Positions 419 to 15,352 of a DNA stretch of 15,352 nt are shown piece by piece. The position numbers and the translations under genes are program-made. The stretch is from Desulfurococcaceae archaeon (GTDB lineage Archaea > Thermoproteota > Thermoprotei_A > Sulfolobales > Desulfurococcaceae). How positions within the stretch are numbered: the first letter of the stretch is position 1; every line of letters begins with the position of its first letter. The notes beneath the pieces were generated by a model, which ran no database searches, was not told the origin of the DNA, and saw only the letters and a program-made list of their open reading frames with translations. The DNA is taken from the NCBI GenBank assembly GCA_038888155.1, contig JAWAJB010000020.1, positions 1 through 15,352 of the forward strand, given 5' to 3'.

Positions 419-525
419 GCCGGGGTGCCCGAGCGGCCTAAGGGGGAGGGCTCGAGGCCATTCCAGTAGGTAAGAGACCCTCTGCTCCCTCAGGGGGCAC
501 GCGGGTTCAAATCCCGCCCCCGGCG
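419..525 (+). tRNA. tRNA-Ser(CGA) with a 20-nt intron at canonical position 37/38 (457-476); CCA not encoded
   Basis: Acceptor stem GCCGGGG/CCCCGGC with discriminator G525. D arm CCC..GGG. Anticodon stem GAGGG(446-450)/CCCTC(478-482), anticodon CGA at 453-455. Long variable arm GCTCCC-TCA-GGGGGC. T arm GCGGG-TTCAAAT-CCCGC. Confidence 0.95.
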
Positions 526-613: not shown

Positions 614-698
614 GCGGGGGTGCCCGAGCATGGTCAAAGGGGTCGGGCTCAGGACCCGATGGCGTAGGCCTGCGTGGGTTCAAATCCCACCCCCCGCA
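614..698 (+). tRNA. tRNA-Leu(CAG), intronless; probable integration site
   Basis: Acceptor stem GCGGGGG/CCCCCGC with discriminator A698. Anticodon arm TCGGG-CT-CAG-GA-CCCGA. Leu-type variable arm TGGCGTAGGCCTGC. T arm GTGGG-TTCAAAT-CCCAC. Confidence 0.97.
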
Positions 699-765
699 CT
701 AACTTACCGGAAATTAAATACTTGAACGCTGTTTGTTTTTGTGATATTGGTTTGTGAAACTGAAT

Positions 766-1275
766 ATGAGTAAAACACGTACGATTAAGAATCGCGCCAT
801 TTACGTTTATTTGCCTAGCTCTAAGGATTAGAGGCGGCGGGCTGAGAAGGCTAGTGTTTCGATTTCGAGGTTTGTTGTTGAGCGAGTTGAGGATTCTATT
901 AGCTGTGAGGAGGGTGATGAGGACTATCTTAGCAGGGCTGAGCTTGTTAAAAGGTTGAGGAATGCCGAGGAGGAGTTGAAGAGACTACGTGAGGAGAACA
1001 GGTTTTTGAAAAAGGTTTGCTGAAAACTTGGATAATGAGCTTAAGCGTTGTAGGATCAAGCCATTCTTGGAGGAAGCTTTTGAGGACGTGATGCGTTTCG
1101 ATAAAGACCTTATGGAGCTGCTTAGGAGAGGCAAATCCTATACTCGGGGGCTGATTCTAGCCTACCTAAACATAGACCCCCTCCGAGATTGAGCTGGCTA
1201 AGGCGTTGAGCAAGCAGCTTGAGGCCTTAGAGGCCTAGTCGAGTACAAGGAAGGGACTGGAAGTGGATAGGCTAA
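766..1275 (+). pseudogene. Integrase-associated putative DNA-binding protein (RHH-like N-terminus, coiled coil, possible C-terminal winged helix), disrupted
   Basis: Manual translation gives MSKTRTIKNRAIYVYLPSSKD*RRRAEKASVSISRFVVERVEDSI..YLSRAELVKRLRNAEEELKRLREENR. There is a TAG at 829-831 and a frameshift near 1010-1020. It continues ENLDNELKRCRIKPFLEE..DKDLMELLRRG..ELAKALSKQLEALE..WKWIG*, with TAA at 1273-1275. Confidence 0.75.
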
Positions 1276-2212
1276 GTCTGAAAGCTGTTCAAAAGCCCTC
1301 AGCCCTTATTGAGGATCTTAATGGGGACTGTAGGCTTAGGGGCATGACCTACAAAGTATAAGGAGATACCTTTCAAGCCTACGAATATTTACAAAATTCC
1401 TTGAAAAATTGGGGCCTCAGCATAAATGACGTATATGTTGGGGTGTTTAGGGATTTCTTACAACGCATCATTTATGAGCGGATGGCTAAGTGCAAGACTG
1501 TTGAGAACTACTTCTCCGCGCTTTCAGCCTTCTACGATTGCTTGGCATTTGAAGGTTGCGTTGCCAGCAACATCATACTGCTATTTAGAAAGAGGCATCT
1601 GAAACGCTACAAGAACGGTTATGACGATCGGAAAGGGAACTCCTCACAGTTGAGGATATGAGTTACCTCATAAACTCAATACTTGACCAAAGGAACAAGG
1701 CCATAGCCACATTGTTGGCAAACAGGGATAAGGAGGGGCGAGCTTTTAAGGCTTGACGTTGATGACGTAAACTAGGCTGAATATTCTATAACGCTTAAGT
1801 TCACACCCAAAAGAAGCAACAGAATAGTGTTCTTTGATGATGAATGCGCAGCTGTGCTTAGAAGGTGGCTTAAAGTGAAGGAGAAGCTGAACCCGCCAAC
1901 AAAAGCGCTCTTCATAAGCTACCAAAGCTTATGAAGGCTTGATAGAATCGGCCTATATACAGCCATAGTCAAATATGCGAAGAACTAGGCTTCCACAACC
2001 CAAACTCGCTGAGGCTGGAGGACCGCTTCGAACCCCACAGCTTCCGCCACTGGTTCACAACATGGCTCCTAAGAAACTGCATGCCACGTAGATACGTGAA
2101 AGAACTAAAAGGCGACAAGCGCCGGAAAGCCATAGATACATACCGCAACATAGACAAATAAGAACTAAAAAAGGCATACCCAGCATGTATACCAAAACTA
2201 GGAATCACATAG
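1263..2212 (+). pseudogene. Tyrosine recombinase/integrase, multiply frameshifted
   Basis: Core-binding-like segment DCRLRGMT..SIRRYLSSLRIF..KTVENYFSALSAFYD. Catalytic motifs TGIRRGEL (1722-1745), TPKRSNR and HSFRH (2036-2050), then ELKGD..AIDTY with Tyr at 2141. Several in-frame stops (e.g. TAA 2159-2161) and frameshifts. Ends IPKLGIT* at 2212. Confidence 0.92.
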
Positions 2213-2292
2213 CTGAACAGTCTAAACCATCCGCGTAAGCTACCTCTAAAATACTCCTTTATCCTCAAACATTGAGAAAAGGCTAAATTGAG

Positions 2293-2424
2293 CTTCTTTT
2301 CATTCAGAAATGAGCAAGAAGTACGCGGAAAACCTCACTTGCTACTAGAATTTCTTTTGCTGCAAACCACAAACAAAAGGCGTGGGGAACACCGGCTGAA
2401 AACGCCTTGAGGACAAACTCCGTT
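2293..2424 (+). ncRNA. Candidate IS110 bridge-RNA-like structured non-coding left end
   Basis: Hairpin at 2293-2321, followed by nested stems GCGGA/TCCGT (2325-29/2419-23), CCTCA/TGAGG (2333-37/2408-12), TTGC/GCAA (2339-42/2362-65) and AGGCGT/ACGCCT (2378-83/2402-07). The position upstream of the transposase fits the IS110 group. Confidence 0.45.
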
Positions 2425-3194
2425 ATGAAAGCGCATATTCGAAATGGACGTGCACAAAGATGCACTCGTAACAACCATAAAAACAGAGGAAGGCGAAGAA
2501 ACAAGATGGAGCAGCGTCGGCGTTCGAGATCTCAAAAACCTAATGGACTGACTAAGATGGAAAGGATGTCTAAAAGGCGTAGTGGAATCCTCTGGAATCT
2601 ACTGGATTCTAATCCACGTAATGCTGACAGATAATTGGTTCCAATTCACCGTAGCGAACGCCCATCAAGTGAAGGCAATCCCCGGCAGAAAAGCAGACGA
2701 GCTGGACTCACAATGGCTAGCACGCGTTTTCAGCGCAGGACTAGTTAAACCATCATATATACTGGAAAGGAAGATTATGGAGCCAAGATACCTAACAAGA
2801 CTCAGAGTGTCGCTTCTAGAATCGCGCAACATACCAATCAGCTGGGAAAACGGCAAAAACTGGACGTATAACAAAAAGGGGAACAAATGGTTAAGGAGAA
2901 TGCTTGTCCAATGCGCTATGGTAGCCATAAAAACAAGAAAAAGCCAAATCAAGCAGTTCTACTTAAGAATAAGGGGTAGGAGAGGCCGTAGGACAGCCAT
3001 AGTAGCCACAGCAAGAAAGCTGCTAGGCATAATATGGCACTTGCTTAAAACAGGAGAAGAATACATAGATAAACACTACGTCAAAAAGACTCTGAAGAAG
3101 TCGAGGAAGAAGAACACTCAAACAAGCTCTGGAAGAAGCAATACTGCTACTTAGACAAGCAGGATACACCGTCATAGCGCCAAGCACAGGATAA
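2425..3194 (+). pseudogene. IS110-family DEDD transposase/recombinase, internally deleted and frameshifted
   Basis: RuvC-like DEDD motifs (KRIFE)MDVHKD, VVESSGIYW and PGRKADELDSQWLA, with a TGA at 2549-2551. The catalytic-Ser motif YQSAGK..TGRITKRG lies in a shifted frame at 2832-2882. It is followed by GNKWLRRMLVQCA..AIVATARKLL..IWHLL and a tail ALEEAILLLRQAGYTVIAPSTG* ending at 3194. Confidence 0.92.
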
Positions 3195-3394
3195 ATCGAG
3201 GCAAAAGCTATTCTGGCAAATTCATCTAAAACAATGACCGCTCTCATAAAGCCTGAAAACAAACGAAGGTTGACATGCCAACTTTATTTTAACGATCCTT
3301 TTACATAGCCTAGAATTTACTCAAGGGCGTTTCCCACTATTTTATTTATGTCTCCATTACGCCATCAATTGCAATGATCATTTCTTTTCTCCTT

Positions 3395-3422
3395 ATTCTT
3401 AATAGGGATAATTCTTAATAGG
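3395..3422 (+). repeat. 12-bp direct repeat ATTCTTAATAGG x2 (16-bp period)
   Basis: Exact copies at 3395-3406 and 3411-3422. Confidence 0.8.
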
Positions 3423-3627
3423 AATACATAGAAGTGCGTGAAAAGGTAGCAAGCTGTTAACAAAGAGATTGCAAGCAGGGCAAGGTTAAAAACATAAGCG
3501 ATTACCTCAGCTATCTATGTAAAAGAATTCGTCTGAATAGAATGACATAAGTACAACTGAAAGGATGATTAGCCCCACAGATACTGATAACCTTAACTTT
3601 AAATGAACGGCAAATACAAATTTTGCG

Positions 3628-3643
3628 CGAAACATCTTATATG
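3628..3643 (+). promoter_or_regulatory. Putative BRE/TATA for a leaderless permease transcript
   Basis: CGAAA..CTTATATG, with the TATA element starting 27 nt before the ATG at 3664. Confidence 0.4.
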
Positions 3644-3663
3644 CAACATTTATTTTAACTTTA

Positions 3664-4976
3664 ATGTCTAAAGTTGAACTTAAGTCAGAGCTTACGCTTT
3701 TTGATGTGACGAACCTTGTCGTGGGAGCTATAATAGGGGCTGACATATACGTGGCATCAGCATTCGGAGCAGGCCTTCTAGGCTTTTCTCGCTGGTAGCG
3801 TAGATCATAGCTGGAATTATAGCCATCGTGATTGCTTTGTGTTTTGCTCAGTGTGCCACCCTGCTGCCGAAAGTTGGCGGGCCATATGCATACGCCCACG
3901 CGGCATGGAGAACCCCTGCGGGTTTTTTATTGTCGGCTGGTTGCTTTGGTTTGCTGAATGGATGCCACTGGCCGTTTTTCCAGTAACCTTTACTCAGTAT
4001 TTGATGTTCTTTCTTGCCAAGTCTTGACAGGAGTTCTCAAGTCCCCAAATACAGCTACGTTCATCATGAACCTTTCACCATTTACTCGATTTGGCATCGT
4101 CAATTTTGGGTTGGCTCTCGTCTTGATATTCTGGGCGTACGCTGGATTTGAAATTTCAACAATTCTGGCAGAGGAGATTGGAAACCAAGCAGAACAATTC
4201 CAAAAGACATAGTTTTAGGAGTATTAATAGTGACCGTCTTCTACTTAACAACGAACGCTGCACTTTTTGGCGTAAGGCCATGGAGGTTGCTGGCTCTGGG
4301 CAATGTACCTCTGGCTACTGCAACGAGTGTAGTGTTAAGTTCAAATTCAACATTAGCCACGGTTAGAGGAGCCATAGTCGGTGCTGGGGCCCTCATTTCC
4401 GTTACTGGTTCCAACGAGTGGAGAATGATGGAGGCTTCAAGACTTGGATATGTACTGGCTGCTAATGATCTGGTTCCACAAATCTTCGCCAAAACTCATC
4501 CAAGAATTTAAGACGCCTTACCTAGGAATCATGATACAAGCAGTTACAGCGCTCGTAACAGCAATCGTTGGTAATTTATGTATGCTGATAGCCATTTCAG
4601 TGCTTTTATGGCAATTGCTCACTTGGCGACAAGCGCATCAATCCTCTCTTTGCACAGCAAAGGTGCAAAAGCTCAGTTTCAATCTAAAGGAGGTTTACTT
4701 ATTCCAAGCCTAGGAGTAATTTTCTCTCTTTACCTAATCACGCAACGCGCGTTCACTTAAATTGCGCTGTGTTTAGCCTTGCCTTCCGTAGGCATGCCTA
4801 TCTACATCAAATATTCTCTGAAGAAAGAAATTGCTGAACTTAAAGAGGCGTTACTTTCCCGAGAATCCATATTGAAAAGAGCCTACAGCCAAGAGGAGGA
4901 GGTTTTTAGCTCACAGTTTACGGCATATAAAGAGGTTCTACAGAATAATCACTGGCAAGAAATATACATGAAATAA
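3664..4976 (+). pseudogene. APC-superfamily amino acid permease, multiply frameshifted
   Basis: Segments MSKVELKSELTLFDVTNLVVGAIIGADIYVASAFGAGLLG (TM1), ALCFAQCATLLPKVGGPYAYA, IFWAYAGFEISTILAEEI (TM6) and SRLGYVLAANDLVPQIFAKTHP/EFKTPYLGIMIQ. They are split across ORFs 3839, 3958, 4230, 4444, 4578 and 4779. Confidence 0.93.
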
Positions 4977-5162
4977 AGCTGATTCGTGAAAGCCTTACAA
5001 CAGTATTAAATGTGAGTATCAAAGAGACTATTCAAGCTGGTATATATGCTGAATGAGTTGTCTCCTGAAAAGCTCATGTATTCTGTTAACGATGACTAAA
5101 CGAATGAAGTTTGCACGTTTTATGGAGCTATCCTTTAAGTAGGAGTTCTTGGTATTCCTGGT

Positions 5163-5506
5163 TTACTTTTCTATTTTTCCCCCTTCAAGGGTTCCACTTA
5201 CTTTATGCCACTCTTTGATTACTTTTGGCCACAGTTCACTGGCCATCAGCTATTTTGTTACGTATTCTTTTTAGTGGTTTTCTCGCTTTATTTTTCCTTG
5301 GTGCTACTCGAAACTTATGAGTTCTGCGCATTTCAAGTACGGATTATGCGGCCTATTTGGTCGTAGTCGAGTGGATGTTCCATGCTTCTTTCTAGGTCTT
5401 CTAAGAGGGAGTCAACTGTTATTTCGTCTTCTGAGCGTAGACAGATGGTGGCTATAACATTTTGGGTGAGTTTTGCAGTCTTGGTGAGATATATCCCAAT
5501 CTTTTT
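5163..5506 (-). pseudogene. Decayed C-terminal extension of the MgtA ATPase (out of frame)
   Basis: An alternative frame from the A5 run at 5502-5506 reads KIGIYLTKTAKLTQNVIATICLRSEDEITVDSLLEDLERSMEHPLDYDQIGRII. After a shift it reads YLKCAELISFE*HQGKIKRENH*KEYVTK*LMASELWPKVIKEWHKVSGTLEGGKIEK*. Confidence 0.6.
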
Positions 5507-8121
5507 GGCGAAATAAGGGTTTGTTCTAGGCGGTAACCATATCTTTTGTAAAACCAGCTTTTAATGATTTCAACTAACGCCATGTAGGCGCCGAGGATCG
5601 CGACTAATGCTATGTAGAAGGTTGGTGGAGGCTTTACAAATCTGAAAATTCCTCCTAGCGGCGTGTAAGGAAGTATCAGCGCGGTTGCTATTACTGCTAT
5701 GCTGCTAAGGAGCAAAAGTCGACTCGGCTTGCTCTTCCAGAAAGGCGACTCCTTTGTTCTAATGGCAAAGATTACAAGGGTCTGCGAGGTTAGGGATTCG
5801 ATGAACCAAGCAGTTTGGAACAGCGGCTCAGAAGCGTTAAAGATGAAAAGCATTATAAAGAATGTTAGGAAGTCGAAGAGTGAACTAACTGGTCCAAAGC
5901 ACACCATGAACTGTCTAACGAAGTGTATGTCCCACTTCTTAGGCTTCTCAATGTATTCTCGATCAACCTCGTCCATGGGTATTACTGACTGCGAAAAGTC
6001 GTAGAGCATGTTGTTAAGCAGTATCTGTATGGGCAGCATCGGCAGAAAAGGCAGAAATAGTGACGCGCCGGCAACACTGAACATGTTTCCAAAGTTTGAG
6101 CTTATAGCCATTAGAATATACTTCATGGTGTTGCCGAAGGTTTTTCTGCCCTCTAAAACTCCATTATGAAGCACCCTTAAATCATTCTGTAAAAGAATTA
6201 TATCGGCAGATTCCTTGGCAACATCAACAGCGTTTTCCACAGATATGCCAACGTCCGCACTTTTTAGGGATGGCGCATCGTTGATCCCATCGCCCAGAAA
6301 CCCAACAACATGCCCATTACTTCTTAGAGCGTTTATTATTCTATTTTTCTGGGCTGGTGTAAGCCTGCAGAACACATTTGCTTCTTCGACAACTCTTGTG
6401 AGGGCGTCATCATGCATTTGGGCAATTTCACTTCCAGTAACTACTTTTTTTATGTCGAAGCCGAGGTACTCGCAAACCTTCCTCGTCACCAGTTCATTGT
6501 CGCCTGTGAGAATTTTCAGTTCTATGCCAGCATTCTTCAGAAGCTGCAAGGCTTCTTTCGCTGTTTCTTTAGGAGGGTCGAGAAAAGCTACGAATCCCAA
6601 AAACACCATTTCCTTTTCATCATTCGCCGTATATACCGGCTTGACTTCTCTTAAACGCTTGTAGGCTACGGCTAAAACCCTGTATCCTTCAGCACTAAGC
6701 TCAACATACTTTTGCTCAATTTTTCTACGGACTTCATCCATTATATCGGCTATAACCCCTCCAACTTCGTAATAAGAGCAGACCTTAGTAACCTCTTCAG
6801 GAGCACCCTTAGTAATCATGAACCGTTGATTCTGATGCTCAACAACTATGGATAGACGTTTACGAACAAAATCAAATGGTACTTCATCAACCTTCCTGTA
6901 ATCCTTAACATCAATCTCTTTAAATCTCAGTATAGCCTCATCTAGGGGGCTTTTAAGCCCAGTCTGGTAGTAGCTATTTAGATAAGAGTAAAGCAGAACC
7001 TTATCGTTTTCAACGCCGTTAAGGTCCACGTGTAGGACAAGCTTTATCCTGTTTTCCGTTAAAGTTCCAGTCTTATCCGTACATAAAACGTCCATGTTTC
7101 CAAAATTCTGTATAGACTCCAAGCGCTTAACGATGACGCCTTTCTTAGCCATTGACACAGCTCCCTTAGATAGGTTTATTGAAACTATCATCGGCAGAAG
7201 CTCCGGCGTTAAGCCAACAGCCAAAGCTACGGCGAAAAGAAGTGAATCAAGCACGCTTCGCTTGTAAAGGGCGTTAATGAAAAACACAAAGATGACAAGC
7301 AGAAAAGTTACTTGCATTATCATGTAGGTAAAACTTCGAATACCCCTCTGGAACTCCGTCTCAACTTTTCTTTCCACAAGTCTCTTCACAATTTTCCCAT
7401 ATTCCGTCAGGCTGCCGGTTTTAACGACGACAGCAGTTGCTGTCCCACTTACAACAGAAGTACCCATAAAGAGATAGTTTCTCCACTCGGTTATCGGGAG
7501 ATCGCTTGATTTAAGGAGTTCAGATGTTTTTTCAACTGGGAAAGATTCGCCAGTCAATGCGGATTGGTCTACAAATAAGTCTTTCGCGCTTATGACTCGG
7601 GCGTCTGCAGGCACAATGTCACCTGCTGAAAGAAATATTATATCTCCTGGAACAATCTCTGCAAGCCTAACCTCCCTTCTAGTGCCATCCCTCAAAACAG
7701 TGGCTGTTGTCGCTACTCTATGCTTTAATATTTCAGCCGCCTTTTCAGCTTCAGACTCCTGATAAAAATCCAAGACCACACTGAACGTCACTATAGTGAA
7801 TATAATAGCCGTGTCCACAACTTCACCAAAAAAGCCTGAAATCAGCCCAGCGATAAGAAGAATTATTATCAACGGACTTTTGAAATGAGAGAGAAAATTA
7901 ATAACAGTTGCCCGTTTCTTTCTCCTAGCAAACTCATTATAGCCGAAAACTCTAAGGCGTCTTTCCGCTTCCTCAGAAGAAAGCCCATTCATTGAAGACT
8001 TCAAACGCGAAAGAAGCTTTTCAACAGGCAAAGTTAAAGCTTCTTCAGTGCCCGGCAATGCCCAGCCTAACTCTTCGCCAACACTCAACCTTTCTAAATC
8101 TTGAACCATCGTCATTCCCAC
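5452..8121 (-). CDS. mgtA: Mg2+-translocating P-type ATPase (P3B)
   Basis: 889 aa with DQSALTGES, AVGLTPELLP, CTDKTGTLT, PFDFVRKR, TKGAPEE, TGD and GDGINDAP. It also has the P3B-typical YILMAISSNFGNMFS and FLPMLPIQILLNNMLYD. Confidence 0.95.
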   Translation of the reverse strand: MGMTMVQDLERLSVGEELGWALPGTEEALTLPVEKLLSRLKSSMNGLSSEEAERRLRVFGYNEFARRKKRATVINFLSHFKSPLIIILLIAGLISGFFGEVVDTAIIFTIVTFSVVLDFYQESEAEKAAEILKHRVATTATVLRDGTRREVRLAEIVPGDIIFLSAGDIVPADARVISAKDLFVDQSALTGESFPVEKTSELLKSSDLPITEWRNYLFMGTSVVSGTATAVVVKTGSLTEYGKIVKRLVERKVETEFQRGIRSFTYMIMQVTFLLVIFVFFINALYKRSVLDSLLFAVALAVGLTPELLPMIVSINLSKGAVSMAKKGVIVKRLESIQNFGNMDVLCTDKTGTLTENRIKLVLHVDLNGVENDKVLLYSYLNSYYQTGLKSPLDEAILRFKEIDVKDYRKVDEVPFDFVRKRLSIVVEHQNQRFMITKGAPEEVTKVCSYYEVGGVIADIMDEVRRKIEQKYVELSAEGYRVLAVAYKRLREVKPVYTANDEKEMVFLGFVAFLDPPKETAKEALQLLKNAGIELKILTGDNELVTRKVCEYLGFDIKKVVTGSEIAQMHDDALTRVVEEANVFCRLTPAQKNRIINALRSNGHVVGFLGDGINDAPSLKSADVGISVENAVDVAKESADIILLQNDLRVLHNGVLEGRKTFGNTMKYILMAISSNFGNMFSVAGASLFLPFLPMLPIQILLNNMLYDFSQSVIPMDEVDREYIEKPKKWDIHFVRQFMVCFGPVSSLFDFLTFFIMLFIFNASEPLFQTAWFIESLTSQTLVIFAIRTKESPFWKSKPSRLLLLSSIAVIATALILPYTPLGGIFRFVKPPPTFYIALVAILGAYMALVEIIKSWFYKRYGYRLEQTLISPKRLGYISPRLQNSPKML

Positions 8122-8173
8122 GATCCATTCTCATCAAACAACCCCTAAAGCCGGGCTCTTACATTCTTACAAA

Positions 8174-8188
8174 CTATAAAATTCTTTC
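8174..8188 (-). promoter_or_regulatory. Putative BRE/TATA promoter of mgtA
   Basis: The minus strand reads GAAAGAA-TTTTATAG about 55 nt upstream of the start codon. Confidence 0.45.
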
Positions 8189-8399
8189 TACAAATCCATA
8201 GCTAAGACTGACAACAGTTTAAGTTAGGAGACACTGAAAGAAAAAGAGAAGGTTTTTGAAGTTTTACTCCATCCTTTAGCCGTTATGGTGTTTCCTTCTA
8301 TTTGAAATATGAAGGCTGTAGCTTTATGTTTGGTGGTGCTGCAAATTTGAGATCTATTGATCGGCTTGTTCGATTGTTCCAGTTTGTGCCTACTTCGTC

Positions 8400-8838
8400 C
8401 ACTTCACTTTACAATCATCATTGAAGAGTGATTGCGGCAATACGTTGCCATATTCTGAGCGCTAAGCCCATATTAGAGGCGGTTTCTAACATAAAAGTCG
8501 TAGAACCCAAAATCCTCACGTAAATGCAATCTTATGAACCAGTAGCCGCTTGCATCCAGCCAATTACTACGCTCAATGATGCATCAACAACGTAATCACA
8601 GGTTAAAGCGGTAGCCTTAGCTTGTTGCCATAACCCATCTTTTATGTCATAAATTTCCATTGATCGCCCACTCCATTGATTGTATGCTAAAATATCAGCT
8701 CAATCAGTGGCTACAAGCATAGTTTTTTACATGTAGGTGTAGTCAGGTTCCCATGGTCGATCCCGATTTGATCTAATATTGTAGCCTATTAAGGAATACC
8801 CCTTACCGTCCTCAAAATGAAGAAGTTGTATTAGCATT
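8400..8838 (-). pseudogene. Possible decayed gene fragment of unknown function
   Basis: Protein-like minus-strand stretches broken by stops: MLIQLLHFEDGKGYSLIGYNIRSNRDRPWEPDYTYM*KTMLVATD*ADILAYNQWSGRSMEIYDIKDGLWQQ.. and DASGYWFIRLHLREDFGFYDFYVRNRL*YGLSAQ. No family recognised. Confidence 0.3.
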
Positions 8839-8881
8839 TGTGTTCATAAATGTTAGGGTTAGTAGATTAAGGAAGTAGCTT

Positions 8882-9222
8882 TTAAGCTCTGCAACTAACA
8901 AAAACGTCTACACAGTCAAGGAAGTAATTCAGGAAACAAGGGATTCTGAGAGCCTCAAAACCTCTAACTAGCTCTCCCAGCAAATAGAGTGAAGGTCAGT
9001 GAGCATGAAATCACACACAAAGAAAGAATTAGTCAGCTAGCCGAGAAACTTAGCATACTAAAGAAACTCTCTAGGACAGACCTAGAACTCCTAGTCCTAG
9101 CAAGCGAGCTCTTAGAAAAGTGTGGCAGCGTAGCAGTCATAAGCGACGATACAGCACTGAGAAGAATAGCTACGCAGATAGGCGCGAAAACCCTGACTAT
9201 AAGGTATAGGGGACGTAAATAA
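8882..9222 (+). pseudogene. NOB1-type PIN-domain ribonuclease, 5'-truncated and frameshifted
   Basis: An upstream frame reads NVYTVKEVIQETRDSES. ORF 8989-9222 then has KLSRTDLELLVLASEL..VAVISDDTALRRIATQIG..IRYRG, matching NOB1-like PIN motifs. The N-terminal 'vlDTsa' acidic motif is missing. Confidence 0.75.
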
Positions 9223-9325
9223 GCTGGTTACTCATGAAGAATGAGTTCTAAACTTGCGCCCTAGTCCTAACTTAATTCGTTAGCATACTTGAATCAGGAC
9301 TTGCGTAATCAATTTAAAAACTACT

Positions 9326-9351
9326 CTAATTACTAATTCTAATTACTAATT
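9326..9351 (+). repeat. 13-bp tandem duplication CTAATTACTAATT x2
   Basis: Exact copies at 9326-9338 and 9339-9351. Confidence 0.85.
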
Positions 9352-9372
9352 TACTAAACTAGGATATTACTG

Positions 9373-9473
9373 GCGGGAGCGCCCGAGCATGGTTAAAGGG
9401 GGCGGACTTAAGACCCCCTTAATGTAGGAGATCGCTGGCATAGGCCTGCATGGGTTCAAATCCTGCCTCCGTA
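9373..9473 (+). pseudogene. Degenerate tRNA-Leu(TAA) with an 18-nt 37/38 intron (9413-9430); candidate attR
   Basis: Reads GCGGGAG-CG-CCCGAGCATGGTTAAAGGG-G-GCGGA-CT-TAA-G[intron]A-TCGC-TGGCATAGGCCTGC-ATGGG-TTCAAAT-CCTGC-CTCCGT-A. There are 1-nt deletions in the anticodon and acceptor stems and an A-C mismatch in the T stem. Confidence 0.85.
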
Positions 9474-9510
9474 CTAATTTACCAGCATTGGTTTTCGAGG
9501 TTAAATAGAG

Positions 9511-9558
9511 TTGATCTCCTCACAGAACCCTCCCTCTTAAGGTGCGGGTCAGGAGATA
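9511..9558. mobile_element. Possible collapsed IS200/IS605-type end remnant (hairpin)
   Basis: Stems ATCTCCT/AGGAGAT and ACCC/GGGT. TTGATCTCCTC and GAACCCTCCCTCTTAAGGTGCGGGTCAGGAGATA resemble, from memory, archaeal IS605/tnpB element ends. Confidence 0.35.
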
Positions 9559-9586
9559 TTGCTTAGGCAGTGTGAATCACGGAGGT

Positions 9587-11929
9587 TCATGCGTAACTAA
9601 ACAACTTATATATCGTGGTTTTAGCGATGTCAGTAGCTAGCAATGTTACTGTAATAGTGTAGGCCAGTGCTAATGCTATAACATGTGAGGGTAGCGGCGG
9701 TATTATTATGCCTCTCCATACCAGTATTGTTGCTACTATGCTGTCAACTATTATGGCTAACAGCATGTACTTGCTTGGCCTCGAGCTCCAGAATACTCCA
9801 GTCTCTCTAAAGTTTACTATGTTTATAAGTCCTGAGAGGAGGAGTACGTAAAACGTAAAACTTTGGAGTTGCGGATACGATAAGTTAATGAGTTTTGCCA
9901 TATATAGCGCTATAAATAGCTCCGCAAGTTTCACAATACCAAGCATTGTTGATATCGCTGTAAGCTTCCTTATATTCCACCTCTCCGGCTTTTTACTCGG
10001 CATTAATACATCAATACTTATGGATAAGGTTACAAAATCGTAGAGAAAAAGCATTAATATCATGTGTGTTGGGGTTAACACTGGAAGCCCTAGGAGCAGT
10101 GTTGATATAGCTACAAAATATACTATGCTGAACGTCTTAACGATCTTATTTATAGTCCAAACAACAATCTTCCTATAAGTCATTCTCCCAAGCCTTATAA
10201 TATTGGTAATCTCCCTCAACCCTGGCGATGTAAGTACTACAGAAGAAACTGATTTGGCTACGTCCGTAGCTCCGCTCACGGCTATGCCTAGATCCGCCTT
10301 CTTAAGCGCTGGCGCATCATTTACTCCATCACCTGTCATGCCAACTACATGCCCCCTCTTCTGTAGAGTCTCTACAATACTATATTTGTCCTCAGGTATT
10401 ACTTCCGCGAAGATCTCGATATCCTCAATGCTTTCAGGGAGTCGCTCTTTAGGTAACTCTCTTAAGCTAACAGCTTTCCCGCCTATACTGACCTTACCTG
10501 CTATAGCTTTAGCTACGTGTATGTTATCTCCCGTAATCATTTTTGGCGTTACACCAAGACTCTTTATAACGTCTATGAATTGCTTAGAGTCTTCACGAGG
10601 TCTGTCATAGAGTCCTAGTAACCCAACAATTTTAACTAAGTCTTGCTGTGTCTCTATCGCCACGGCTAGTGGTCTAAGTCCCTCTCTACCAAGCTCCCTA
10701 ACAAGCTCTTCAATTCCTTCTTTGTTGCTGTTAGTGGCTATCTGGAGAATCGCTTGCGGCGCACCCTTAATAATTCTCATTCTTCGTCCCTGTAGCTGAA
10801 CAAATACTTCACTTCTCTTTGTTTCCGGAGTGAATGGCTTGAATTCTGAAATATCCGCTATATTTATATTAATGTTCATCTCCTTAGCTTTCTGTCTAAT
10901 GGCGTTATCTATAGGGTCTTTCGTTACTTCTTCAGATGCTAGGGCAGCGTACAGCACTATATCCTCCTCGCTATATCTGTTATCTAGTGGAATTACTTTA
11001 CCTATTACCAATCTATTCTCAGTTATTGTGCCCGTTTTGTCTAAACATATGACATCCATCATAGAGGCAGCTTCTATGGCCTCAAGCCTCCTAACAATTA
11101 TGCCACTTTTCGCAAGCTCAACACTCCCTAAAGCGAGGGTTATGGTAGTCATGGCTGGCAGGGCTATAGGTATTGAGGCTAACAACAACGTTAAGGTGAA
11201 AGGCAGGACTTCTAAAACATTAAGTCCTACTAAAACAAGCTTGACTACAACCAATACTATGAAGATAGAGTCTACTAGAAGAAGCCATTTAGTTATGCTG
11301 TTAGTTATCTCCTCTATTAGGAGTCTAGGCTTTGCTATTTGGACAAGCTCGACTGTTCTACCGAAGCGCGTCTTTACACCAGTTGCAACAACCTTAATGA
11401 TTGCCTCTCCCCTAACAATCGTTGTTCCAGCATAGACGTTATCGTTTATGCTTTTCTCAGCAGGCACAGACTCACCAGTCAGCGCAGATTCATCAATGGT
11501 TATAGAACCTTCTAAAATAACGCCGTCAGCAGGTATGATATCGCCCATAGAAAGCTTTACAATATCTTCTGGCACAATATATTCAGCCGCGACATCAACC
11601 CACCCCCTATCCCTCAAAACTTTAACAGTCACTTTTAGCCTCGATTTAAGCATCTCAATAGCTTTACCAGCCCTATACTCGTGTACAACGCCAACGACAG
11701 CATTTACGAGGAGTAGCGAAACCATTATGATGAAGTCTACGTATTTTCCTAAAACAAAAGAGATGACGGCGGCCACTTCTATAATATACGGTGTTAGCCC
11801 TGTAAACTTCTTTAAGAAAATTACTACAGTCTTTTCTCTTCTTTCAGGCACTTTATTAAGACCGTAAATCTCAAGCCTCTTAGCGGCTTCCTCGCTTGTT
11901 AAGCCTCTATATTCGTTCGTCACACACAT
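9587..11929 (-). CDS. Plasma-membrane-type proton-efflux P-type ATPase (P3A)
   Basis: 780 aa with IDESALTGES, ASIPIALP (cf. P3A GGIPIAMP), CLDKTGTITEN, FKPFTPETKR, KGAPQAI and MTGDGVNDAPALKKAD. The M6 Asp in LFLYDFVTLSISID corresponds to the proton-acceptor Asp of P3A pumps. Confidence 0.9.
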   Translation of the reverse strand: MCVTNEYRGLTSEEAAKRLEIYGLNKVPERREKTVVIFLKKFTGLTPYIIEVAAVISFVLGKYVDFIIMVSLLLVNAVVGVVHEYRAGKAIEMLKSRLKVTVKVLRDRGWVDVAAEYIVPEDIVKLSMGDIIPADGVILEGSITIDESALTGESVPAEKSINDNVYAGTTIVRGEAIIKVVATGVKTRFGRTVELVQIAKPRLLIEEITNSITKWLLLVDSIFIVLVVVKLVLVGLNVLEVLPFTLTLLLASIPIALPAMTTITLALGSVELAKSGIIVRRLEAIEAASMMDVICLDKTGTITENRLVIGKVIPLDNRYSEEDIVLYAALASEEVTKDPIDNAIRQKAKEMNININIADISEFKPFTPETKRSEVFVQLQGRRMRIIKGAPQAILQIATNSNKEGIEELVRELGREGLRPLAVAIETQQDLVKIVGLLGLYDRPREDSKQFIDVIKSLGVTPKMITGDNIHVAKAIAGKVSIGGKAVSLRELPKERLPESIEDIEIFAEVIPEDKYSIVETLQKRGHVVGMTGDGVNDAPALKKADLGIAVSGATDVAKSVSSVVLTSPGLREITNIIRLGRMTYRKIVVWTINKIVKTFSIVYFVAISTLLLGLPVLTPTHMILMLFLYDFVTLSISIDVLMPSKKPERWNIRKLTAISTMLGIVKLAELFIALYMAKLINLSYPQLQSFTFYVLLLSGLINIVNFRETGVFWSSRPSKYMLLAIIVDSIVATILVWRGIIIPPLPSHVIALALAYTITVTLLATDIAKTTIYKLFSYA

Positions 11930-12035
11930 CCCTACACCGACATCCTTGACTTAGGTTATTTATTTTTGAGTTTAAGCGTAGCAAACAACATAGGAGTAGG
12001 AGAACATTTATAGTGCTCATGCTGCTTTAGACTCG

Positions 12036-12430
12036 TTTACAAGCGAGGAATTTATTGACGTGGAGGTGTTTCTTAGAGCGCTCCAGGTCATATAACCATA
12101 AATTCAGCAGCCCATAGGTTATAGGATTTACAGTATTCCAGGATCGATAGTAGCTACTTTAAGGATGGTGCTATCAGCTTATTTAATCATGTGAGGTGTT
12201 GCAGTAGGCTTACCCCCCTACATAACAATACCTCTAGCTAGAACGATACTGAAGGGCATAAACTCTGCTGTCATAGCGCTAGTACTAATAATTCTACTAA
12301 CAATAAGCCAGCAAGACAGCACTGTAGGACTCGTTGAGGTAATGATATTAATCACGGCCTTTACTCTAGTCTTTCTCTTCAAATAACATCCAGTAACTGC
12401 TATAGGGGTCTCCGCAGTGCTAAGCCTACA
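12036..12430 (+). pseudogene. Short-chain chromate transporter (CHR family) remnant, 5'-truncated
   Basis: Segments TSEEFIDV, then S*SAPGHITINSAA, then IGYRIYSIPGSIVATLRMVLSAYLIM*..ARTILKGINSAVIALVL..LFK*HPVTAIGVSAVLSL. These match the CHR motif 'eeF.d..ai.qs.PGPiain.atfiGy...g..Ga.vAt'. Stops at 12192 and 12384. Confidence 0.8.
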
Positions 12431-12778
12431 CGCGGAGACCAGCCTCGGGCTGTCAATAAGTCCCTGCCTTACGAGCCTTGTAGATGATAAACAGGCCTAT
12501 TTATTAACTAACGTGTTATATCATGAAAAGGCAGCTGTGATTTTTAGCCATTTACTCACGAGACTTCTACGATAGAACGGCATACGTTCTGGGATTTGAT
12601 CATAGACTTAATAAGCGGGCAAGCCCGCATTTCCTCAACTTGCTTCTATCAAGTTGTAGAGAATAATAATTCTAGTAAATTTATGCGTAAACCCCACTCC
12701 TGCACTTATCGATATTTCCTTACTGCAATCTATGAAATTACAAGGATTTTCGGAATAAGAGCTGTTTAAAAGGCAACT

Positions 12779-15352
12779 TCAAATAGTTTTAACCACCGTC
12801 AATGGCTTTACCTCTTGGTAAAAAGCTTTAAGCACTTCTTCAGCTTTTTCTTTGCCTGCTTCAACCAAATCTATCTTCTCCTGGAGGATTCTCGTCCTTT
12901 CTTCATTTACTAAGCTATGGAACTTCTCATTAAGGTACTTAAATACACTTTTGCCCCTCAATGTAGCTATTAGCTTATTTTTGCCAACTTCTACAACATA
13001 CCCCCTCCTCTTAAGTATGTCAAGTATCTTTGCGTAAGTTGATGGCCTGCCAATACCCTTATCTCTCATTAACTCAACTAAGTCGCTATACGTGTATAAT
13101 GGATGCTCTGGCACAGATCTTGACTTTACGCTTTCTACTTCATACTCACCATCACTTACACCCCCTAAGTCCACGGGGTTTAAGGCTTTATTCAATTTGT
13201 TAAAGCCATCATCAATGACCTTTGTTATGAAGGAGAATTCCTTTGTAAAGCCCTTAAAATCTAGGGTGAACGTAGTTTTCTCAACTATACATGGCTTCAT
13301 CTGGCTAGAGACAAATCTCTTAAACACAAGATCGTATAATCTATAGTCCTCAGGTCTAAGTGGAACTGCTAGCGATAGCAGTCCTGCTGCTCTAAGAGCC
13401 ATTACTTGCTTTGAGTCAAGAGGCTTCGTAGGCCTTATACATTCATGAGCGCCAGGCTTCTCCCACTTTCTAGCGTGAAAGTAATTCTCTCCATAAACTC
13501 TCGATATATAGTCCTTGGCTATAGAAATCCCCATTGCACTAACAGTCGTGCTGTCAGTTCTGTGATAAGTTATTAATCCTGCTTCAAAGAGCCTCTGTGC
13601 AGAATCCATGATTTTCATTGCTGGAAGCTTAAGTATTCGAGAAGCATCTGAAAGCATGGAGTCAGTAGTATAAGGCGGAGGTGGATGAACTACAACTACC
13701 TCCCTTCTAACGTTCCTTAAATTAACTCTACCAACACTTTTAATCTCCTTAGCAGTATGCCTAGGCGCCTTAAAGAAAAGAGTTACGTTGACGCCCTTTA
13801 GCTTAAGTGTAATTAAGTCGGCTCTCTCCTTATGCCTATCAGTTCTCTCCACAATCCATCCTAAGACAGGTGTCTGAACTCTGCCTGCTGATAAATAGTT
13901 TAATCCAAACTTACGCCATAGTATGGGACTTAAGCTAAAGCCTATCCACCGATCTTCAATTCTCCTAACAATTTGTGCTTCAACCATATTCCTATCTACA
14001 TTAGTGAGAGACTTCAGCGCTAATGTAAGACCTCTACGGGTGACTTCATGGAATCTAACTCTGTAAATTCTACTATTTAACGGCTTTAACAAGAGCATTA
14101 CATCCCACGCGATCTTCTCTCCCTCAGAATCAGGATCTGTTCCAATAAGTATTTCATCGACTTGCGAAGCAAGATGTCTTAGGGCCTCTATGATGGGCTT
14201 AGCCTCCACAAATACTTTACTACCACAGAATGGGCATGAAGATTCATCCTCGGGAGTATCTCTACCGCACCTAATACATTTCCTTATAGGCTTATATATT
14301 GGTTTAAACGATGATTTTCCAACAATTACTCCAAAGAATCCTTCATTTGTAACTAAGTCAAGTATATGTCCACCTGTAGCAGTCACTATCATTAACCTAT
14401 CCTCAGTCAAGACTTCATAGGACTGCAATCCATTAACGATCCTTCTAGTAGGTCTACCGAAAAACCTTGCTATAGTCCTAGCTTTATTAGGCGATTCAAC
14501 TATGAAAAGTGCTGTCTTCATAAGTTCCCTTCTCTTGATCCTCAGCTTTCCTTCAAGCGCCAGCTTAACCCTTCTTCTATCCATGTCTACTTCTTTAATT
14601 ACTTTACTAAGCATGTTTTCATCGTATTCCCTGAAGTCTATAGTTTCAAGAAGCAACTTGAGATCCTTTAACAATGCGTTAAACGCCTTTTCATCATCAA
14701 TTATAAGTATACTTAAGCCCTTGGTTAAGCCCCCAACATACAACCTTGAAGTTCTACCGCTAGCCTGAATGTAGGCTGTTGCATCAGGTATAATAAAGTA
14801 GTATTCGCCTTCCTTACCGCCAAATGTAATAGTTTTACTCTTAGTCAATTTATCTACAACTTCAGGATCTTTGAGAACTTTATTAATAAATTCAAGTGAT
14901 TCACAAGCAATTCTTCTAACAAGTTCTCGATACCCCGTTAATTCTTCACCTGTTTTTAATGCACTGCGAACAGCTTCTAAAACATCCCTGCTAGCTAGCC
15001 TTATCTTTATGAGGCCTCCGAGGACTTTATTGAACTCTGAAGGGTACTTATTATATATGACGTCTCTTACTTCGTTAAGCAGTATAAGCCATCTCCCAGG
15101 GTGAAATTCATCCACGCTTATCCTCAGCATGAATTTAGGAACTCCAGCGAACACAGCGTACCTAACTCTCTCAGGTAAATCTATTCCTCTAGTGAGAGGA
15201 CTTCTATACGATGCTATTCCTATCAATGCATCTATTTCACTTGAAACAAACTTCTCAAACACTCTCTTCCTAGCCCCTAAGTAAGCTTCAACTTTAAGCC
15301 CCCTGCTCTTGAGGAACTCAGCTATTTTCTCCACGTATTCAACTCCTTTATC
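12779..15352 (-). CDS. rgy: Reverse gyrase, 5'-partial (frame is open to the window edge)
   Basis: Helicase-like motifs RGIDLPERVRYAVFAGVPK and YIQASGRTSR are fused to topoisomerase IA motifs VESPNKARTIA, GHILDL, CxxC..CxxC Zn finger, GTDPDSEGEKIAWD, SAGRVQTPVL, GLITYHRTDS (catalytic Tyr), GAHECIRPT and GIGRPSTYA. Confidence 0.98.
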   Translation of the reverse strand, partial: DKGVEYVEKIAEFLKSRGLKVEAYLGARKRVFEKFVSSEIDALIGIASYRSPLTRGIDLPERVRYAVFAGVPKFMLRISVDEFHPGRWLILLNEVRDVIYNKYPSEFNKVLGGLIKIRLASRDVLEAVRSALKTGEELTGYRELVRRIACESLEFINKVLKDPEVVDKLTKSKTITFGGKEGEYYFIIPDATAYIQASGRTSRLYVGGLTKGLSILIIDDEKAFNALLKDLKLLLETIDFREYDENMLSKVIKEVDMDRRRVKLALEGKLRIKRRELMKTALFIVESPNKARTIARFFGRPTRRIVNGLQSYEVLTEDRLMIVTATGGHILDLVTNEGFFGVIVGKSSFKPIYKPIRKCIRCGRDTPEDESSCPFCGSKVFVEAKPIIEALRHLASQVDEILIGTDPDSEGEKIAWDVMLLLKPLNSRIYRVRFHEVTRRGLTLALKSLTNVDRNMVEAQIVRRIEDRWIGFSLSPILWRKFGLNYLSAGRVQTPVLGWIVERTDRHKERADLITLKLKGVNVTLFFKAPRHTAKEIKSVGRVNLRNVRREVVVVHPPPPYTTDSMLSDASRILKLPAMKIMDSAQRLFEAGLITYHRTDSTTVSAMGISIAKDYISRVYGENYFHARKWEKPGAHECIRPTKPLDSKQVMALRAAGLLSLAVPLRPEDYRLYDLVFKRFVSSQMKPCIVEKTTFTLDFKGFTKEFSFITKVIDDGFNKLNKALNPVDLGGVSDGEYEVESVKSRSVPEHPLYTYSDLVELMRDKGIGRPSTYAKILDILKRRGYVVEVGKNKLIATLRGKSVFKYLNEKFHSLVNEERTRILQEKIDLVEAGKEKAEEVLKAFYQEVKPLTVVKTI

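Follow-up and report, generated by a model that had tools for sequence, protein, structure and literature searches.

A 15,352-nt stretch of DNA from a Desulfurococcaceae archaeon (contig JAWAJB010000020.1 of assembly GCA_038888155.1) was analyzed over its full length, which is called the window below. The window forms the whole of contig C20 in a 134-contig assembly. It carries a decayed island of inserted DNA directly behind an intact tRNA-Leu(CAG) gene. Both ends of the island were of the type found in a family of integrative elements with a tyrosine integrase, and its interior held a full-length, intron-bearing pseudo-tRNA-Leu(TAA) that descended from the lineage's own tRNA-Leu(TAA) gene. 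The island (699–12704) can be read as a composite, in which a captured tRNA-Leu(TAA) and tRNA-Leu(CAG) served as the sites of two integrations; this reading was judged to have an even chance of being correct. A preliminary description, made by reading the sequence only, had taken the island to extend from 614 to 9483.

The window was found entire in contig C1 of G190, a genome of the same family, at 99.74% identity (40 mismatches, no gaps). Four further regions of G190, among them the one that adjoins the window, were looked for in the bin of contig C20, and none was present. Hence, G190 was used as the proper genomic context. It seems that the bin is a mixture into which C20, a contig of a G190-like organism, has strayed. 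Several tRNAs were duplicated in the assembly of C20, which was ~1 Mb larger than the genus relatives.

Limits of the island

The left junction of the island (attL) was formed by tRNA-Leu(CAG) (614–698, plus strand), the chromosomal target gene, which was called by ARAGORN and matched the tRNA model of Rfam at 56.2 bits. G245 and G265, two other genomes of the genus of G190, carried the same tRNA-Ser(CGA)–tRNA-Leu(CAG) pair. The tRNA-Leu(CAG) gene was syntenic in both, the flank upstream of it was the same, and their homology to the window stopped at its 3' end. In the empty site of G245, 119 bp separated tRNA-Leu(CAG) from the stop codon of the reverse gyrase gene, and the homology came back at window position 12787. 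The distance from this tRNA to the reverse gyrase gene was 754 bp in G265, where the homology came back at 12777. From these two positions on, the reverse gyrase flank had 86–89% nucleotide identity to the two genomes. According to this synteny, the inserted DNA amounted to ~12 kb, from 699 to ~12704, and both ATPase genes described below as well as the pseudo-tRNA lay inside it. The pseudo-tRNA had been thought to close the island at 9483, and an empty site was expected to join tRNA-Leu(CAG) to the sequence behind that position. Neither was the case, since the relatives joined this tRNA nearly straight to the reverse gyrase gene and their homology resumed only at 12787 and 12777.

The right junction (attR, 12660–12704, plus strand) consisted of a family-type right-arm end (~12660–12688) and a degenerate 16-nt tRNA-Leu 3' fragment (12689–12704). 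Behind it, at 12705–12786 (plus strand), was the native trailer of tRNA-Leu(CAG), which the island has displaced and which aligned with the 119-bp spacer of G245. The chromosomal right flank was the 3' part of the reverse gyrase gene (12779–15352, minus strand; Pfam Topoisom_bac and Toprim). When the fragment and the trailer behind it were aligned to the tRNA end and the native trailer of G245, the score was 39, whereas the shuffled sequences gave 21.5 ± 3.3, with a maximum of 35 in 300. Moreover, the 45 nt left of 12689 resembled, in the same register, the 45 nt left of a 25-nt repeat in the genome G383, and only 29 of 3000 shuffles reached the score. In the G383 element, a co-oriented Leu-type tRNA was followed by the arm and the integrase, and the 25-nt tRNA-end repeat (96% identical) closed the element at 7.7 kb. 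The island is thus closed by an ordinary short tRNA 3' fragment at 12689–12704, the simple kind of att fragment with which the full-length tRNA had been contrasted earlier.

The presence of the island in populations was explored with Logan contigs from four hot-spring runs of four studies, which broadly agreed with these limits. In two of the four runs, contigs passed from ~699 to ~12801/12824, with sides of 26–29 letters only and unknown letters between them. The word depth in two runs was 170–290x for the flanks, whereas that for the island was 1–30x; the uncovered parts of the island in runs X4 and X6 are no evidence of absence. No circular junction was seen in this search, which covered contigs only. 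In runs X4 and X6, an abundant island-free relative differed from the window at ~10 positions within 110 nt of the reverse gyrase 3' end (12865–12971) and at few positions beyond. These differences could represent a recombination tract at the island border.

Two other inserts were observed directly behind tRNA-Leu genes of the genus. The 754-bp insert of G265 lay behind tRNA-Leu(CAG) (G265:C15; L044 2869–3622), and an insert of ~985 bp, relative to G245, lay behind the native tRNA-Leu(TAA) of G190 (G190:C15; L061 7076–8059). Their first ~20 nt were alike and nothing else was, and BLAST found no similarity between the two inserts, or of either insert to the window. Other insertions may have left them as scars.

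The pseudo-tRNA and the element family

The reported match between 660–708 and 9436–9483 was reproduced, with 41 of 49 columns identical and one 1-nt gap. As had also been noticed, the distal copy continued in the 5' direction into a complete tRNA-Leu-like sequence (9373–9473, plus strand) with the anticodon TAA and an 18-nt insert at 37/38. The same arrangement of the insert was found in the intact Leu(TAA)/Leu(CAA) genes of the relatives. A single 39-nt 3' half was common to all Leu isoacceptors of G190 and its relatives; hence, most of the match is expected from Leu paralogy, and no hybrid tRNA can be demonstrated at the window. The trailer was the part that exceeded paralogy, as 10 of the first 12 nt past the discriminator base were identical. 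Matches of at least 10/12 to the trailer of the pseudo-tRNA occurred at 130 of the 2,419,636 plus-strand positions of the assembly (~5e-5 per position), and a search of the assembly for further copies of either trailer gave none above chance. The match as a whole is not due to chance, and tRNA paralogy accounts for most of it.

The pseudo-tRNA was composed of exon 1 (~9373–9412), an intron (~9413–9430), and exon 2 (~9431–9473). Relative to the native tRNA-Leu(TAA) in contig C15 of G190, it had 10 substitutions and 2 one-base deletions, and 8–10 of the substitutions were transitions, depending on the placing of one gap. All 18 intron positions agreed with those of the native gene, though the adjoining stem was damaged. 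According to our assignment of the stems, one deletion was located in the 3' strand of the anticodon stem and the other in the acceptor stem, U8 was changed to C, and the T stem had one mismatch and two wobble pairs. The native copy was called, whereas the pseudo-tRNA was called neither by ARAGORN, with or without the intron option, nor by Rfam (E ≤ 1). With such features, the copy does not pass as a functional tRNA-Leu(UAA) gene and is dead. An A6–T67 pair in it had been regarded as seemingly compensatory and as something of an argument against chimerism; the pair is present, and both changes are deamination-type transitions.

The descent of the pseudo-tRNA was evaluated from its intron, which had the G190 state at all four sites that separate G190 from G245. 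The introns of tRNA-Leu(CAA) and tRNA-Ser(CGA) differed between these two genomes to a similar degree, so the intron differences can be used as a fair clock. The native tRNA-Leu(TAA) locus was syntenic between G190 and G245. The G190-specific intron states and the syntenic native locus indicate that the copy derives from the tRNA-Leu(TAA) gene of this lineage and postdates its separation from G245. The other intact tRNA-Leu(TAA) that the preliminary description proposed to look for thus exists, with its intron, elsewhere in the near-identical G190. The Leu set of this genome comprised one gene for each of the five isoacceptors and the extra pseudo-tRNA copy. The ordinary PIN–tRNA-Leu(TAA) locus that would have reduced the two tRNAs of the window to plain paralogues was present at this site in no relative.

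As had been supposed, the DNA 3' of tRNA-Leu(CAG) is an integrated element in decay, and its tyrosine integrase is broken. The integrase pseudogene (1239–2238, both ends approximate, plus strand) was Xer-like, of the unsplit type, and distributed over at least four frames, with a PF00589 match at 1946–2158 (E 1.7e-6). Its read-through matches to the intact 312-aa integrase of L059 crossed 6 stops at 1278–1985 and 21 stops at 1343–2206. The catalytic domain of the L059 protein matched PF00589 at E 5e-27, the Xer-like integrase of the family also had a SAM-like domain at its N-terminus, and intact relatives of 312–313 aa were found on two short metagenome contigs (L059 866–1801; L060 45–1525). 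A 180-aa partner gene preceded the intact integrase, and an intact homologue of it was located at L060 45–584. In the window, the partner gene (766–1192, plus strand) was broken by a stop and a frame change, as judged from its stop-to-stop frames. The encoded small protein combined an N-terminal DNA-binding-like part with a coiled coil; no Pfam family was found for it, and in our own reading it is ribbon-helix-helix-like. A copy of the window's partner gene with 75% nucleotide identity was present in contig C19 of G190.

The assembly contained no paralogue of the integrase, and G190 had no integrase besides the island remnant, apart from a XerA-like gene. Close relatives in the order and the class (3/301 and 3/351 genomes) were confined to the window's own contig, G190, and a truncated copy in G283. 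Neither the integrase fragment nor an alignment of two intact relatives had a match in scans of viral contigs. The protein search returned 2436 proteins at E ≤ 1e-20, and the best 120 of these 2436 were 74–100% identical and 294–327 aa in length. The named sources of the matches were metagenome-assembled genomes of Thermofilum, Bathyarchaeia, Nitrososphaerales, Thermoproteota, and Gerdarchaeota, and many matches lay on contigs of 1–3 kb. Such short contigs would be expected of a repeated, recently spreading element.

At the level of the phylum, the integrase was matched at E ≤ 1e-60 in 8 of the 401 genomes sampled, and seven of these loci did not belong to the contig of the window itself. In five of the seven, a co-oriented class II tRNA that has a Leu acceptor stem was located ~600–700 nt upstream of the integrase, with a homologous arm between them. 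ARAGORN named three of the five as Leu and two as Ser; from their anticodon loops, all five are tRNA-Leu in our reading. Of the remaining two loci, one had a tRNA-Leu(TAG) on the other strand and one had no tRNA. Five of the seven loci thus support tRNA-Leu as the target of the family. A second tRNA copy was carried by none of the five extended loci.

The conserved left arm of the element (699–765, plus strand) was compared with the arms of the distant hosts G659, G415, and G380, which gave local scores of 98, 95, and 64, respectively, and none of 300 shuffles reached any of them. The stretch from the tRNA to the partner gene was kept across hosts, which indicates that the trailer behind tRNA-Leu(CAG) is the left arm of the element and not the chromosome. 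The metagenome contig L060 started inside this arm. A palindromic motif with a CCGG-like centre, degenerate in the left arm of the window, was located at the start of the left arm and recurred on the right arm, in both cases just outside the tRNA-derived core (window 699–720 and 12655–12676; L097 622–645 and 8245–8268; L093 690–708). The core of the family was ~17–25 nt, with such motifs on either side. The motif may be an integrase site or an operator of the partner protein. Two candidate events at the palindrome, a crossover at its centre and an insertion of the ATPase module into a right-arm palindrome, were rejected, because the native trailer begins directly at the tRNA end (12705) and the arm homology to G383 reaches left of the palindrome centre. 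A fourth attachment-site remnant, suspected by eye near 2219–2245, was dropped since it was absent from the top matches of the scan.

The 12 nt directly behind the pseudo-tRNA (9474–9485, plus strand) were identical to the arm at 699 at 10 of 12 positions and to the arm behind tRNA-Leu(GAG) in contig C19 of G190 at 9 of 12. They corresponded to the left half of the palindrome with which a left arm of the family type begins. Past these 12 nt, similarity was found to none of the seven family arms, and the break lay at the palindrome centre. The trailer similarity was hence rightly ascribed to attachment-site biology, the trailer being the start of the family's left arm. Furthermore, an 11-nt direct repeat (9344–9354 and 9472–9482) bracketed the leader and the tRNA; its upstream copy (plus strand) holds the left-half arm motif. 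The exact arm motif occurred three times in the window, at 699, 9346, and 9474, always on the plus strand. This anatomy, a tRNA followed by the start of an arm, is that of an attL-type left junction and not that of a right junction that closes an island.

A second element of the family was located behind tRNA-Leu(GAG) in contig C19 of G190 (L080 4998–14026). It measured at least 8.9 kb, up to the contig end; no integrase was found in it, and the contig ends inside the element. The right end of this element was not found in G190, and the contig of the right flank held no recognisable tRNA fragment. Of the five tRNA-Leu genes in this one small genome, two at the least and probably four have been targets of the family. 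Taken together, the family appears to be widespread, to target tRNA-Leu of any isoacceptor, and to encode a small DNA-binding-like protein and a Xer-like integrase. Two side observations concern the same genome. The second element contained open frames of 991, 1153, and more than 512 aa, and the trailer of tRNA-Leu(TAG), in our reading, starts like a family arm.

Proposed integrations and alternative explanations

The composite island would have been built in several steps. First, the short tRNA-derived core that such an element usually carries would have been replaced, in one element of the family, by an entire tRNA-Leu(TAA) gene taken from a host of this lineage. When this element integrated at tRNA-Leu(CAG), the full-length tRNA-Leu(TAA) would have come to lie at its far end. 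The full-length copy and tRNA-Leu(CAG) would subsequently have acted as attachment sites for two integrations, in either order. The captured tRNA would have served as an internal attachment junction or have arisen at one. The outcome would be module 1 (699–9372), with the integrase, the IS110 remnant, the permease remnant, and the MgtA-like ATPase, and module 2 (9486–12688), with the second ATPase. The integrase module of the second element would have been lost later, with one end of the deletion at the palindrome. Decay of the redundant tRNA copy, the integrase, the partner gene, and the other cargo would have followed, mostly by C>T/G>A transitions and frameshifts, while the two ATPases stayed open. 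The wider claim, that elements of this family can capture a complete intron-bearing tRNA-Leu as an attachment site and deposit it behind another Leu isoacceptor as a fresh target, is put forward tentatively and is more doubtful than not.

The features of an integrative element were found at the locus, that is, a PF00589 recombinase (broken), an intact tRNA at the 3'-end insertion, a distal tRNA-end repeat followed by the native flank, and an empty site in the relatives. Three co-oriented copies of the site, at 682–698, 9457–9473, and 12689–12704, correspond to those of a tandem array. A tandem array would further have a right arm, a core, and a left arm at the internal junction. Here, the 5' part of the tRNA replaced the right arm, the 45 nt upstream were not arm-like, and the start of the left arm was 12 nt only. 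An array would also have an integrase in each module, whereas the island had one remnant.

Several results weigh against two integrations with a captured tRNA. The weakest step is the capture itself: its breakpoint would have to lie within ~16 nt of the gene, and no known mechanism explains this. The homology to the native tRNA-Leu(TAA) locus ended at the 5' end of the tRNA or close to it. The leaders of the pseudo-tRNA and the native tRNA-Leu(TAA) had no significant homology, since the score was reached by 105 of 1000 shuffles for 60 nt and by 289 of 2000 for 20 nt. The sequence left of the pseudo-tRNA did not resemble the right-arm end of the family in G383 (2843 of 3000 shuffles reached the score), and its similarity to the sequence left of 12689 (arm 12630–12680) was not significant either (120 of 1000 and 423 of 2000 shuffles). 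With one integrase remnant only, the second element is represented just by the 12 nt of arm start and by a right end of the family type. When taken by itself, the 16-nt fragment (12689–12704) was at noise level in the scan. No free or intact family member with a full-length tRNA was found in the five extended loci or in the two scans of viral contigs. The population contigs of the runs showed only presence or absence of the whole island and no variant with one module, and the read-derived joins across the site have the short sides and unknown intervening letters mentioned above.

The main alternative is a single 12-kb element with its ends at 699 and 12689, though it was considered unlikely. 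In that case, the pseudo-tRNA and the 12-nt half-motif would be an internal relic, either a tRNA gene or the remains of an old attL acquired at an earlier stage of the element, that never acted as an attachment site here. The presence of just one integrase and partner-gene module and the all-or-none variants of the runs are in keeping with a single element, as is the similar decay of 9457–9473 and 12689–12704 (5 and 4 differences in 17 nt, respectively, by our count). Moreover, family elements of 7.7 kb and of at least 8.9 kb exist. A single element gives no account of exactly the first 12 nt of a left arm following the tRNA and breaking off at the palindrome centre, and an internal tRNA was found in none of the five other extended family loci.

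The version of the preliminary description is very improbable; synteny and the two concordant assemblies contradict it as well as the two explanations that come after it. In this version, the island spans 614–9483, a chimeric tRNA was created by a swap of halves between tRNA-Leu(CAG) and an intron-bearing tRNA-Leu(TAA) in the attachment site of the element (attP), and the chromosome begins at 9484. The full-length tRNA look-alike and the trailer similarity behind this version are real, and the virus SSVK1, as cited in PMC8371274, offers a precedent for a half-swap. Nevertheless, 9484–12688 was absent from the locus in both same-genus genomes, and the ATPase in it was patchily distributed. The native trailer of tRNA-Leu(CAG) began only at 12705, behind a family-type attR, and the trailer after the pseudo-tRNA was of the element type and not chromosomal.

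Slightly less credible still is an ancestral cluster of two ordinary chromosomal paralogues, tRNA-Leu(CAG) and tRNA-Leu(TAA), one of which decayed in place. A comparable group exists within the order, as G036:C21 (L017 692–1587) had tRNA-Ser(CGA)–tRNA-Leu(CAG), tRNA-Val(GAC), and an intron-bearing tRNA-Leu(TAA) within ~900 bp. However, the tRNA-Leu(TAA) of G036 was on the opposite strand, the genus relatives had nothing between tRNA-Leu(CAG) and reverse gyrase, and the tRNA-Leu(TAA) of the lineage was at another locus that was syntenic in G190 and G245. The G190-specific intron states further indicate that the copy is younger than the split of these two genomes. The least probable explanation is an assembly artefact, a mis-join at the 38-nt stretch common to the pseudo-tRNA and the native tRNA-Leu(TAA), for which speak the break of the Logan unitigs of X2 and X3 in the pseudo-tRNA (pieces 7612/8852–9424 and 9395–10067, overlapping by 30 nt only) and the status of the window as a stray contig in a mixed bin, whereas two separate assemblies yielded the same 15,352 bases without a gap and both halves of the pseudo-tRNA had their own mutations relative to the native gene, so that neither side is the native locus.

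The composite reading was compared with known systems. Integration at tRNA 3' ends by unsplit archaeal tyrosine integrases, attachment sites that extend beyond the tRNA, arrays that re-use one site, and integration into intron-bearing tRNAs have been described (PMC8371274, PMC6563490). The classical pNOB8-type XerA-like elements (Badel et al., 2021; PMC8371274) likewise have a Xer-like integrase with a SAM-like N-terminus and PF00589, integrate at a tRNA 3' end, restore the tRNA, leave a short repeat on the far side, and keep the integrase gene unsplit. In our reading, the catalytic box of the intact relatives is H-x-x-R-H, whereas that of the pNOB8 type is Y-x-x-R (PMC8371274), and membership of the pNOB8 subfamily is not implied. 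Unlike the classical elements, the window family is specific for tRNA-Leu in several isoacceptors and unusually conserved (74–100% in the best 120 of 2436 matches) across several archaeal lineages.

The arrays that re-use one site (Krupovic et al., 2019, PMC6563490; Redder et al., 2009, cited in PMC8371274) resemble the window in having three co-oriented tRNA-Leu segments and two modules, and in the copy nearest the tRNA gene being intact and the others decayed. In contrast to these arrays, the window had, at its internal junction, an entire intron-containing tRNA of a different isoacceptor instead of a bare 3' fragment behind a right arm, and an integrase remnant was present in one module only. 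Sugahara et al. (2012; PMC3293823) proposed that the attachment site of an element can bring an intron into a tRNA gene. Their model likewise involves a recombinase-bearing insertion beside a tRNA gene and a second intron-bearing tRNA copy nearby. In their Caldiarchaeum case, a 1.9-kb insertion was flanked by a 5' fragment and a two-intron tRNA-Thr, whereas the window has a whole dead intron-bearing copy of a different Leu isoacceptor 8.7 kb downstream. The route for moving tRNA introns that had been suggested for this DNA is consequently a published proposal already (PMC3293823, cited by Badel et al., 2021, PMC8371274). Hybrid tRNA genes can result from the integration of an element whose attachment site stems from another tRNA, as for SSVK1 (cited in PMC8371274), whereas the functional tRNA-Leu(CAG) was unchanged at the window. 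In the open-access literature, no description was found of this particular family with its specificity for tRNA-Leu, nor of an internal island junction that holds a complete tRNA of a second isoacceptor, and either may still be in print.

The island is a fossil, as its integrase and tRNA copy are dead, and it does not change how the cell works. It is a documented case of tRNA-targeting elements reshaping tRNA loci in hyperthermophilic archaea. The element family brought in two transport ATPases, and a full-length copy of a second isoacceptor, intron included, stayed behind in the island. If the capture is true, it would lend sequence-level support to the existing hypothesis on the spread of tRNA introns and tRNA gene copies, and would be a natural instance of the role proposed for mobile elements in the transfer of tRNA introns, and of entire isoacceptor genes, from one locus or cell to another. 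The compact, conserved, tRNA-Leu-specific element family is a better lead than this pseudo-tRNA.

Cargo genes and neighbouring features

The chromosomal left flank began with the end part of a flavodoxin-like gene (2–382). It was followed by tRNA-Ser(CGA) with a 20-nt intron (419–525, plus strand), the chromosomal neighbour of the target tRNA, which was called by ARAGORN with the intron option and was kept in G245 and G265 according to the alignment. Default ARAGORN misses this tRNA, and Rfam detects only its T arm, as a weak tmRNA match.

Inside the island, the integrase pseudogene was followed by a remnant of an IS110-family transposase with broken frames (2429–3154, plus strand; PF01548 and PF02371) and by an amino-acid permease pseudogene in several frames (3607–4976, plus strand; PF13520 and PF00324 on 4152–4508). 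A possible C-terminal piece of a PIN-domain gene (8968–9222, plus strand) gave weak matches to PF08745 (E 0.0014) and PF17146 (E 0.0028), both under the curated cut-offs.

The two cargo genes that remained intact encode P-type ATPases. The second of them, of 780 aa (9587–11929, minus strand; Pfam), was the cargo of the distal module. It was patchily distributed, and its best matches in G245 and G265 were only 29–30% identical and lay elsewhere in the genome. No relevant tRNA was found in the 1.5-kb flanks of 15 loci with its homologues (one unrelated tRNA-Ala was present), and none was found within 8–10 kb in five extended regions of 13–20 kb. The first ATPase was MgtA-like and had 889 aa (5452–8121, minus strand; Pfam E1-E2_ATPase, Cation_ATPase_N, and Cation_ATPase_C); it was found in neither G245 nor G265 at this locus. 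A piece 74% identical to it (window 5810–6006) was located ~0.7 kb downstream of tRNA-Leu(GAG) in G245 (G245:C13:45783–45970), and Leu-targeting elements may have carried the MgtA-like ATPase on more than one occasion. In another genus, homologues of both ATPases (43% and 48% identical) were adjacent with no tRNA between them (G041:C6; L067 10360–15614), and the two P-type ATPases may be functionally linked.

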